DNA of 5,100 nucleotides from a virus (lineage: Duplodnaviria > Heunggongvirae > Uroviricota > Caudoviricetes), in the IMG/VR virus record IMGVR_UViG_2703718783_000004, one strand, 5' to 3'. Positions 1,725 to 5,100 of the stretch are shown in pieces. The notes beneath the pieces were generated by a model, which saw only the letters and a program-made list of their open reading frames with translations, was not told where the DNA came from and searched no databases. The translations under genes were made by a program, and so were the position numbers. How positions within the stretch are numbered: position 1 is the stretch's first letter; each line of letters opens with the position of its first letter.

Positions 1725-1739
1725 CGCTGACTCTCCGGA

Positions 1740-3834: not shown

Positions 3835-4233
3835 TTATTGCATTCTGGCCAGGCCACGTTCTGTCATTTCGGCTGCCACACCGGCAGAGACACGGAACGC
3901 CGTTCCCGGCAGCACAAATGCCACAGGTTCATCCCGCGTGGCGTGAAGTGCATCGGTATGCAGCGTCACCAGTGCCACTACCGTGACCAGTTCAGCCGTA
4001 TCATGAATCACGGTATCCGGCTGCGCTGATACCACCTCATTTTCATGCCCGGTCAGCACATTTTCCGGGCTGAGAGATGTGTCCTGACCGGCAGCGTCAT
4101 CCGTGTCATCAAGCTCCTCTTCCAGCTCTGCCACACGGAGTGCCAGTTCTTCTTTCGTCCCCGTCAGGCTGACATCACGGTTCAGTTGCTCACCCAGCAC
4201 CTGAAGACGGGCAATCAGTTCATCTTTCGTCAT
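3835..4233 (-). CDS. FI: DNA-packaging / head assembly protein FI (132 aa)
   Basis: The track ORF (3835..4272) begins at an ATG that lies inside the E-FI hairpin. The likely true start is the internal Met at 4231-4233 (MTKDELIARLQVLGEQLNRDVSLTGTKEELALRVAELEEELDD...ERGLARMQ), preceded by a GGAGGAG Shine-Dalgarno. Recognisable as lambda gpFI with an acidic linker. TAA stop at 3835-3837. Confidence 0.9.
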   Translation of the reverse strand: MTKDELIARLQVLGEQLNRDVSLTGTKEELALRVAELEEELDDTDDAAGQDTSLSPENVLTGHENEVVSAQPDTVIHDTAELVTVVALVTLHTDALHATRDEPVAFVLPGTAFRVSAGVAAEMTERGLARMQ

Positions 4234-4254
4234 GGACTCCTCCACAGAGAAAAA

Positions 4255-4272
4255 ATGGCCCCGAAGGGCCAT
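4255..4272 (-). promoter_or_regulatory. Hairpin in the E-FI intergenic region with a UUCG tetraloop, followed by a U-tract; possible attenuator or mRNA 3' stabiliser
   Basis: Plus-strand 4255-4272 is 'atggccccgaagggccat'. On the minus-strand mRNA this is 5'-AUGGCCC-UUCG-GGGCCAU-3', a perfect 7-bp stem (5 GC pairs) with a C(UUCG)G tetraloop. It starts 2 nt after the E stop and is followed by UUUUCUCUGU, then the FI Shine-Dalgarno and ATG. Confidence 0.45.
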
Positions 4273-4274
4273 GA

Positions 4275-5100
4275 TTACGCCAGTTGTACAGACACGAATT
4301 CATCAGGGTCAGCCAGCAGCATCAGCGGTGCTGACTGAATCATAGTGAACTCACGCGCCGGATCGCCGGTGGTCACCCAGTTTTTCGGGTAACGGGCAGA
4401 GGCGTTAATGCCTTCGCGCTGTGCGTCCGCATCCTGAATGCAGCCATAGGTGCGCAGACCGCGTGCCTGAGTGTTCCCCAGCACCATCGTGTTGTCCGGC
4501 AGGAAGTTCTTTTTGACGCCGTTTTCCACGTACTGTCCGGAATAAACGACGATGGCCACATCGCCATACATTCCCTTATAAGACACCGCTTTGCCCAGGT
4601 CTTTCACCGCTGTCTCCAGCTCGGAATGAGAGCCGCGACGGGTATCCAGCTTATCCCTGACGGCTTTGAAGGAACGGAACAGCGCCCAGCCTTTCGGATC
4701 AAACACGATGATATTCACCACACCGCTGGCGTTCAGCGCGTAGGCTTCGATATCGTCGGTCGGGTCATACGTGGACTTGTCACGCTGGCTCCACTGCGTG
4801 CCGCCGGACTGCGTGATGTTATTCGCCGCACTGCGGCCCATATCCACTTCAACCGGATCGAAGGCTTCACCGGTCATGGTATATTTGCCCTTAAGCACGG
4901 CAGAAACGGCCTGCATCTCTTCGACCTGAGCAATGGCCAGCTCTTCGTCACGCATGTTCTGCATGATGATGCGACGGCGGCGGTAAGCCGGGTCTGCCAG
5001 ATTCTGCGGATCTTCATCCGGCAGGCGACGCAGGGTCATCTGCGGATTCACTTCATGCTTGGGTTTGACATATCCCGGCGTAAATTCAGAGGTGGAGCCG
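4275..5100 (-). CDS. E: Major capsid protein E, C-terminal ~274 codons; the N-terminal part lies beyond the window end
   Basis: The minus-strand frame is open from the window edge to the TAA stop at 4275-4277. The track translation ...VNPQMTLRRLPDEDPQNLADPAYRRRRIIMQNMRDEELAIAQVEEMQAVSAVLKGKYTMTGEAFDP...DPDEFVSVQLA is recognisable as the lambda gpE C-terminus (HK97-fold major capsid protein). Confidence 0.93.
   Translation of the reverse strand, partial: GSTSEFTPGYVKPKHEVNPQMTLRRLPDEDPQNLADPAYRRRRIIMQNMRDEELAIAQVEEMQAVSAVLKGKYTMTGEAFDPVEVDMGRSAANNITQSGGTQWSQRDKSTYDPTDDIEAYALNASGVVNIIVFDPKGWALFRSFKAVRDKLDTRRGSHSELETAVKDLGKAVSYKGMYGDVAIVVYSGQYVENGVKKNFLPDNTMVLGNTQARGLRTYGCIQDADAQREGINASARYPKNWVTTGDPAREFTMIQSAPLMLLADPDEFVSVQLA

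Follow-up and report, generated by a model that had tools for sequence, protein, structure and literature searches.

An RNA hairpin lies directly after the stop codon of the major capsid gene E in a 5,100-nucleotide (nt) stretch of viral DNA (Caudoviricetes; IMG/VR record IMGVR_UViG_2703718783_000004), which at its full length is called the window below. We find that relatives from lambda to Chi keep a hairpin in this place with differing sequences, and it is therefore very likely that the element is a real, selected RNA signal. The decisive evidence against chance is this comparison across relatives, the statistics of the single spacer being suggestive. The hairpin likely serves differential mRNA abundance, and it probably favours the capsid message over the genes downstream. 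As to how, we tentatively propose that it protects the processed 3′ ends of the D/E message in a Q-antiterminated operon.

The window comes from a lambda-like phage, with Escherichia phage YDC107_1 as its top match (96.7%) and many "Lambda_ev" isolates at about 96%. Its late genes E, FI, FII, Z, U, V, G and H all lie on the minus strand. The E translation shares 97-99% identity with E proteins of the lambda group, and matching phage records label the region as major capsid protein E. The E-FI spacer is the longest in the local part of the operon, the FI-FII, FII-Z and V-G spacers measuring 11-15 nt. The features around it are as follows.

4275..5100, minus strand: 3′ part of gene E (major capsid protein), continuing past the window edge, with its UAA stop at 4277..4275
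4274..4234, minus strand: E-FI intercistronic spacer, 41 nt, with a minimum free energy (MFE) fold of -16.3 kcal/mol (z = -2.0)
4255..4272, minus strand: RNA hairpin AUGGCCC-UUCG-GGGCCAU, with 5′ arm 4272..4266, loop 4265..4262 and 3′ arm 4261..4255
4246..4254, minus strand: U/pyrimidine tract UUUUUCUCU, immediately 3′ of the stem
4237..4243, minus strand: FI Shine-Dalgarno GGAGGAG, weakly paired to the pyrimidine tract in the MFE fold
3835..4233, minus strand: gene FI (DNA-packaging chaperone, 132 amino acids, named FI in matching records), AUG at 4233..4231, the first gene past the hairpin

Read along the message, the spacer runs UC-AUGGCCC-UUCG-GGGCCAU-UUUUUCUCU-GU-GGAGGAG-UCC. The hairpin begins 2 nt past the E stop in sense orientation, and the FI Shine-Dalgarno, where some phage records annotate a ribosome binding site, follows 11 nt beyond it. 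The stem consists of 7 perfect base pairs (bp), five G-C and two A-U, and a C-G pair closes the loop to give a C(UUCG)G tetraloop. If the last paired U is included, six U stand in a row (five further U in the tail, then CUCU), with at least five U within the first 8 nt 3′ of the stem. A first-pass annotation of the window had described a perfect, GC-rich 7-bp stem with a C(UUCG)G loop at these coordinates, and we confirm the structure and its position and correct the strand, all features lying on the minus strand. The terminator-like shape that it ascribed to the element is borne out by the stem, loop, U-tract and sense orientation after the E stop; the one other correction concerns the tail, whose U run is slightly longer than it had written.

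Folding energy and terminator scoring were among the checks proposed in that annotation, and within the window the hairpin stands out by the latter. By itself it is worth -12.3 kcal/mol; 5 of 200 shuffles of the spacer folded as well as the spacer itself, and a shuffle test on the best perfect hairpin gave p = 0.03, so that the hairpin of this one window, taken alone, is modestly beyond chance. It has the shape of an intrinsic terminator, namely a 7-bp stem with five G-C pairs, a 4-nt loop, a 3′ U-tract and a position 3′ of a stop codon. It ranks first in a consensus terminator scan of the window and across the 5.1 kb no other site on the gene strand matches its terminator-style score, with d'Aubenton-Carafa-style scores of +40.7 for the window hairpin and +15.6 for that of lambda. 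Among the 25 longest matches listed, it is the sole perfect 7-nt inverted repeat with a loop of at least 3 nt.

Two familiar classes of element were considered and rejected. The motif is single-copy in the window even with 2 mismatches permitted, and an Rfam scan of the region returned no family at gathering threshold (best 14-16 bits against a threshold of 45), which argues against a REP/BIME-type repeat. The 7-bp stem is well short of the ~20 bp needed for an RNase III processing site. Folding a 141-nt context gave no robust long helix (z = -1.6).

The evidence that carries our conclusion comes from other phages. We collected diverse loci by tblastn against phage records, from annotated regions and by a species-level genome scan with E alignment. 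Among 44 distinct loci of the E family, ranging from 43 to 100% E identity, 42 have a perfect hairpin of -9.6 kcal/mol or lower within 60 nt of the E stop. The median best hairpin is -12.5 kcal/mol after E versus -3.9 kcal/mol at 418 other open reading frame (ORF) ends on the same strand (Mann-Whitney p = 2e-21), and 30 of 37 spacers outdo dinucleotide-shuffled versions of themselves (p ≤ 0.05). At 24 of 46 loci, no other same-strand site in the whole 3-9-kb locus is as terminator-like as the post-E hairpin. The pattern extends to all eight of the distant phages sampled (Chi, Xylella Salvo, Xanthomonas FoX4, BcepNazgul, Ruegeria V18, RcPutin, Rhizobium PPF1 and Vibrio K242; 23-35% E identity), each of which has a strong hairpin in a 55-82-nt post-capsid spacer. 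These counts are conservative because our perfect-stem scanner under-scores mismatched hairpins (as at locus L136) and A-U extensions that absorb the U-tract (as at L087).

About 20 or more unrelated stem sequences occur among these post-E and post-capsid hairpins. They include GGCCC/GGGCC, GUGGCCC/GGGCCAC, CGGGGGC/GCCCCCG, CGGCGGG/CCCGCCG, GAGCC/GGCUC, GGGGC/GCCCC, GUGGGGCC/GGCCCCAC, GGGUCC/GGACCC and GGAGGC/GCCUCC. UNCG or GNRA tetraloops are found in 26 of 46 loops, and UUCG recurs on at least five different stems (GGCCC, GGGGC, CAGGGC, Salvo GCCCGG and Nazgul GGCCC/GGGCU). The gap between stop and hairpin reaches ~30 nt in other lineages, and the distance to the Shine-Dalgarno varies. The first-pass annotation had guessed that the element would be conserved in lambda; the same hairpin is present there (J02459), and hairpins occur far beyond lambda.

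Closer to lambda, the stem can be followed pair by pair. The IMG/VR relatives, at 97-99% identity, are too similar for covariation. We used the homologous lambda/phi80/N15-like group, which shares the GGCCC core and comprises 31 sequences, 28 of them distinct. Its five inner pairs are invariant and hence uninformative on pairing, and the two outer pairs change in a compensatory way: pair 14-31 is found as AU (13), GU (9) and GC (4), and pair 15-30 as UA (20), CG (4) and UG (1). There are 8 double-change cells versus 2.2 ± 1.4 after shuffling, a value that 0 of 500 shuffles reached, and 97% of cells are paired versus 33-57% with the partner slid. Covariation among lambdoid phages, which had been put forward as a check from the window alone, is thus seen in the two outer pairs.

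The lambda hairpin is identical to that of the window and is followed by the tail UUGUUUCUCU, a weaker and interrupted U-tract; UUGUCUCUCU is another interrupted tail of the lambda clade. In 80 IMG/VR relatives the stem-loop is constant except for a change of the outermost A-U to G-U and one loop singleton, while the tail comes in at least five versions. The window tail is the most terminator-like of the clade, its tail score of 5.04 being the highest among the clade variants. We quantified polymorphism on 48 distinct lambda-clade haplotypes, as follows.

Core stem: 0 of 10 sites polymorphic, nucleotide diversity (pi) 0
Loop: 1 of 4 sites polymorphic, pi 0.01
Tail: 8 of 10 sites polymorphic, pi 0.137
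Third positions of the final 100 E codons: 42% polymorphic, pi 0.065

Since none of the 10 core sites varies while 42% of third codon positions do, the stem of the lambda clade is, on these haplotypes, under purifying selection. Constraint on the U-tract is not detectable among them, and the tract changes faster than synonymous sites (pi 0.137 vs 0.065).

The E-FI hairpin is one of a set, because hairpins also follow D and V and almost never follow FI, FII, Z or G. The products of D, E and V are the three proteins of which each virion requires hundreds of copies. We placed the neighbouring genes by tblastn and scored the 60 nt past each stop for a strong hairpin, with the following counts.

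D: 29 of 38 (76%)
E: 42 of 44 (95%)
V: 9 of 18 (50%)
FI: 0 of 28
FII: 0 of 31
Z: 1 of 19
G: 0 of 17

As is typical of intercistronic stabilisers, a stable spacer stem-loop thus lies 3′ of the more highly expressed cistron, after D, E and V and not after FI, FII, Z and G. The sister hairpin of lambda, in the D-E spacer (L081 962-986, outside the window; spacer z = -2.8), reads AAAGGCCGC-CUGU-GCGGCUUUU followed by UUU and has the canonical terminator shape with U7; after D hairpins generally, a mean of 6.5 of the next 8 nt are U. Hairpins after V in relatives, such as CGGGGC-UCCG-GCCCCG (L110 ~7549, L117 ~7565, L125 ~7595, L116 ~7587), are mostly without a U-tract (3.2 U of 8). In the window and in lambda, the V-G spacer is only 15 nt long (window 1725-1739) and has no hairpin. 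The first-pass annotation had treated the element as a device for setting the ratio of E to FI and the products beyond it. The direction of that reading is supported, since hairpins that follow the genes for abundant proteins are what a ratio-setting device would predict, and the restriction to E and FI was too narrow, the sister hairpin after D having been overlooked.

We also recorded apparent hairpins after U in 33% of cases and rejected them, as they stem from palindromic codons inside the start of V (encoding LAPVKGAG) and are not spacer hairpins. These codons form the palindrome GCUGGCACCUGUUAAAGGUGCCGGU, which reaches -18.7 kcal/mol in relatives (L116/L117 ~6816, L140 ~6779, L107 ~6800). 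The corresponding palindrome of the window, at ~2444-2465 and about 30 nt into the V coding region, is weaker (13 nt at 77%).

Lambda is the textbook case of a single long antiterminated late transcript, its protein ratios being attributed to translation initiation. Because the late operon is read by antiterminated polymerase, the hairpins would act after transcription. From the structure, position, conservation, gene association and stem constraint observed above, we infer the following steps involving RNA polymerase, RNases and mRNA levels. Q-modified RNA polymerase, being resistant to terminator hairpins, would mostly read on into FI and the tail genes, and the hairpin would fold in the mRNA once the polymerase has gone by. 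The long transcript would then be cut downstream, plausibly in the single-stranded U-rich tract, and 3′-to-5′ exonucleases would halt at the C(UUCG)G stem, leaving the D- and E-bearing RNA segments longer-lived than the FI-tail part. If a minority of polymerases truly terminated at the U-tract, this would push in the same direction. Translation-initiation strength would still fix most of the protein ratio, with the hairpin adding a bias towards capsid protein at the RNA level. It is possible, though somewhat less likely, that the whole D/E/V set acts post-transcriptionally in this manner, marking off stable mRNA segments such that RNA processing co-sets virion stoichiometry, while the fast-evolving U-tract tunes a small termination component in each lineage.

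We favour an exonuclease barrier because the hairpin itself is the common denominator across lineages. The structure is conserved independently of terminator features, both in the stem of the lambda clade and in most of the eight distant phages, whose hairpins have little or no U-tract (Chi-like and alphaproteobacterial phages). The first-pass annotation had likewise preferred stabilisation over termination, which fits the frozen stem with its variable U-tract and the distant hairpins that lack one. The scan of the window found no promoter-like site, and E-FI-type spacers, at only 35-80 nt, are too short for one, so FI and the tail genes would depend on read-through. Q-lambda is reported to act as a nozzle at the RNA exit channel of the polymerase, keeping terminator RNA from forming (PMC9388147), and the shielding of 3′ ends from exonucleases by terminator stems is an accepted principle (PMC4104026).

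Several points weigh against this proposal. After post-E hairpins, 4.97 of 8 nt are U compared with 2.59 on the 5′ side (background 0.22 per base); 84% of these hairpins have at least 4 U of 8, the enrichment is even stronger after D, and the U-tract of the window is the best of its clade. As an exonuclease barrier does not need it, the U enrichment points to real termination in many lineages. Judging from the size of the ribosome footprint, terminating ribosomes would repeatedly melt a stem that starts 2 nt past the E stop, and a 7-bp hairpin of -12 kcal/mol would be only a moderate barrier. FI has a strong Shine-Dalgarno of its own, and Sampson et al. (1988, PNAS) reportedly attributed the ratios of lambda late proteins chiefly to translation initiation, mRNA being roughly even; this would restrict how much the hairpin can contribute. 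Finally, the sequenced phage PhiR70_1 (PV340577.1) has an IS4 element within the hairpin. Since this phage was deposited as a complete genome, the disruption appears to be tolerated and an intact E-hairpin junction appears not to be essential.

The IS4 of PhiR70_1 (L167) encodes the transposase InsG and is ~1.43 kb long, with a 12-bp target duplication GGCCCTTCGGGG at 763-774 and 2202-2213. The copy on the E side is without the 3′ arm, and the copy on the FI side retains GGCCC-UUCG-GGGCC and the tail. The left end of the element has a terminator-like hairpin of its own with U7, ~55 nt past the E stop.

A first alternative is that the hairpin is principally a leaky intrinsic terminator, where a fraction of polymerases, Q-modified or not, would release at the U-tract and transcription would step down after D, E and V. 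Its canonical shape and its scores (+40.7 in the window, +15.6 in lambda) agree with this, as do the sense-orientation enrichment of U after both E and D and the presence of textbook terminators in relatives, for example AAAAGUGGGGCC-AGU-GGCCCCACUUUUGUUUU in Aeromonas and ...CCCUUUUUUCUUUU in a Vibrio sinus plasmid. The weak rho-independent terminators T_J, T_F and T_G, which follow structural genes of phiX174, block only 20-40% of transcription, and in T7 and LUZ7 inefficient terminators reportedly balance expression (PMC9163698). However, the nozzle attributed to Q-lambda would preclude terminator RNA, the U-tract of the lambda clade outpaces synonymous sites in its evolution and often has interruptions (UUGUUUCUCU, UUGUCUCUCU) over a frozen stem, and distant relatives retain the hairpin without U-tracts. 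A trailing ribosome would impede folding of a stem 2 nt past the stop, and V, which is located downstream and needed in ~190 copies, would drop along with FI. We therefore consider leaky termination rather unlikely as the principal function, although some of it quite possibly contributes alongside protection of 3′ ends.

A second alternative is that the hairpin insulates translation, such that the stem and the weak pairing between tail and Shine-Dalgarno would uncouple FI from the heavy ribosome traffic on E and keep FI low. The hairpin does lie between a heavily translated gene and a low-need gene, 2 nt past the stop of one and 11 nt before the Shine-Dalgarno of the other; UUUCUC pairs with GGAGGA in the MFE fold; and the genes past FI are separated by 11-15-nt spacers or overlap, with no hairpins. 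This explanation nonetheless seems improbable to us, for a like hairpin sits between D and E, which are needed equally and in very high amounts, the tail/Shine-Dalgarno pairing is weak (about -4 kcal/mol), and placement of the hairpin varies in other lineages (to ~30 nt from the stop, with a variable distance to the Shine-Dalgarno). The idea that the pyrimidine tract and the FI Shine-Dalgarno form a conserved pairing was considered in its own right and rejected, since the variants GGAGAAG and GGAUGAG occur without compensating changes.

The hairpin could also be a safety terminator, halting polymerases that are not Q-modified, in the lysogen or in early infection, before the morphogenetic genes and having no part in late ratios. 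Its terminator shape would suit this purpose, as it would be fully active only on unmodified polymerase and ignored by the Q-modified enzyme (PMC9388147). Such a role would leave unexplained the preference for D, E and V over FI, FII, Z and G, the post-capsid hairpin of virulent Chi-like phages and the unconstrained U-tract of the lambda clade, and we regard it as a poor candidate. That the element lacks any RNA function, and represents a palindrome arisen by chance, a protein site at the DNA level or a short junction sequence where mosaic head-gene modules meet, is very improbable: the fold of the single spacer reaches just z = -2.0, and the E/FI junction is indeed a mosaic boundary at which FI N-termini and flanks differ among relatives with the GGCCC core, yet the position is kept with unrelated stems and differing loop lengths in more than 50 lineages, the stem shows compensatory changes, the U-tract is biased to the sense strand, and UNCG and GNRA tetraloops are reused on differing stems.

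The hairpin also bears on where FI is annotated to begin. The AUG of its 5′ arm (4272) opens a 145-amino-acid ORF in frame with FI (window 4272-3835, minus strand), and in the records of phi80 and 3W, FI is annotated from a GUG that lies within their own hairpins (L082 2035; L085 2032). We rejected an N-terminally extended FI as a conserved feature: elsewhere the start codon is missing or the frame does not match, a stretch of 13 open codons would arise by chance in about one case of two, and the AUG has no Shine-Dalgarno upstream. Because neither frame nor start codon is conserved in other lineages, FI starts inside hairpins are probably gene-caller artefacts.

No terminator or stem-loop is annotated in the E-FI spacer of J02459 or of the 60 phage records listed out of 80 that match, in which only coding sequences (CDSs) or ribosome binding sites are marked there. 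We found no study of the E-FI hairpin in the literature, no occurrence of its sequence in the papers searched, nor any work on lambda late-transcript 3′ ends, Term-seq or decay specific to it, although a mention in the older lambda literature is possible. The E-FI hairpin is thus an uncharacterised element of a familiar kind, known from T7, phiX174 and SPP1.

Several database records deserve comment in their own right. In the J02459.1 feature table (L081 2067-2465), Fi is labelled "(DNA packaging;117)", yet its CDS 7202-7600 encodes 132 amino acids; the figure of 117 belongs to Fii. The record MW057783.1, "Campylobacter phage CJLB-4" (labelled Campylobacter jejuni, 48,361 bp), has an E-FI region (7034-7164) of 93.9% identity, equal to that of lambda, and the lambda E/FI annotation, and is probably mislabelled lambda or a contaminant. 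E sequences 97-100% identical to lambda also occur in assemblies of unrelated taxa, including Chromatium, Kitasatospora, Paenibacillus, Bradyrhizobium, Enterococcus, Prevotella, Corynebacterium and others. The contigs are often short, with coverage near 1x where the contig name states it, and this looks like lambda contamination or spike-in and not like real prophages. The suspect loci are L088-L103, L123, L124, L129, L138, L139, L142-L149, L152, L153, L157, L162, L163, L165 and L166. In one of them (L094 2350-2371, corresponding to lambda ~4484-4505), a terminator-like GAACCCGC-CUAUGC-GCGGGUUU followed by UCUUUUG lies just beyond where the portal gene B ends, yet within the overlapping C frame, in the 5′ part of gene C.

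A hairpin after E, with its sister after D and counterparts after V in relatives, would add an RNA-level layer to the account of lambda late expression. The idea is cheap to test, as ribosome-profiling and mRNA-seq data from lambda induction are already public (GSE47509). The D-E and E-FI spacers are not neutral linkers, which is relevant to refactored lambda head genes and to display or packaging constructs based on D or E, and the mis-started FI of some records is relevant to gene callers and annotators. Elements of this kind being familiar in other phages, the finding refines known biology and adds no new principle; the D/E/V pattern within an antiterminated operon is tidy and directly testable and should be no great surprise to the specialist.

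Among known systems, the T-phi terminator of T7 lies after gene 10 (major capsid), and thus offers the same arrangement of a stem-loop right after the major capsid gene with downstream morphogenetic genes expressed through read-through. It acts on T7 RNA polymerase, whereas the E-FI hairpin would act on E. coli polymerase carrying Q. The phiX174 terminators likewise stand directly after abundant structural genes in a multi-gene unit and are mostly read through, yielding nested mRNAs and graded dosage. They differ in having been measured and in belonging to a phage that lacks an antiterminator, whereas the E-FI operon is Q-antiterminated and its hairpin, with an apparently unconstrained U-tract in the lambda clade, is known from sequence. 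In SPP1, gene 13 (major capsid) ends at 8777, a rho-independent terminator of -14 kcal/mol is predicted at 8775-8815, and gene 14 of the same late cluster starts at 8828 (PMC6316719). This again places a hairpin in a ~50-nt spacer after the capsid gene, although the capsid protein is unrelated in sequence, the host is Gram-positive and the SPP1 element is likewise only predicted.

With respect to the proposed barrier, the closest parallels are the intercistronic stabilisers of malE-malF (a REP element), Rhodobacter pufBA-pufLMX and pap, in which a stem-loop 3′ of the higher-need cistron blocks 3′-to-5′ exonucleases and the upstream segment accumulates. The E-FI hairpin resembles them in its stable stem-loop on the 3′ side of the cistron in greater demand. 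REP elements are genome-wide repeats, however, while the E-FI hairpin is single-copy, and differential stability, demonstrated for those operons, is a proposal for the E-FI hairpin. The nearest relative within lambda is the D-E hairpin, found in the same operon with the same shape after the other ~400-copy head protein and present in 76% of relatives, with the difference that it lies outside the window and has a much stronger U-tract (6.5 U of 8 on average). In its loop and closing pair, the E-FI hairpin is identical to the extra-stable C(UUCG)G tetraloop hairpins that Tuerk et al. (1988) reportedly described in phage intercistronic regions and terminators, a structural motif class and not a functional family.

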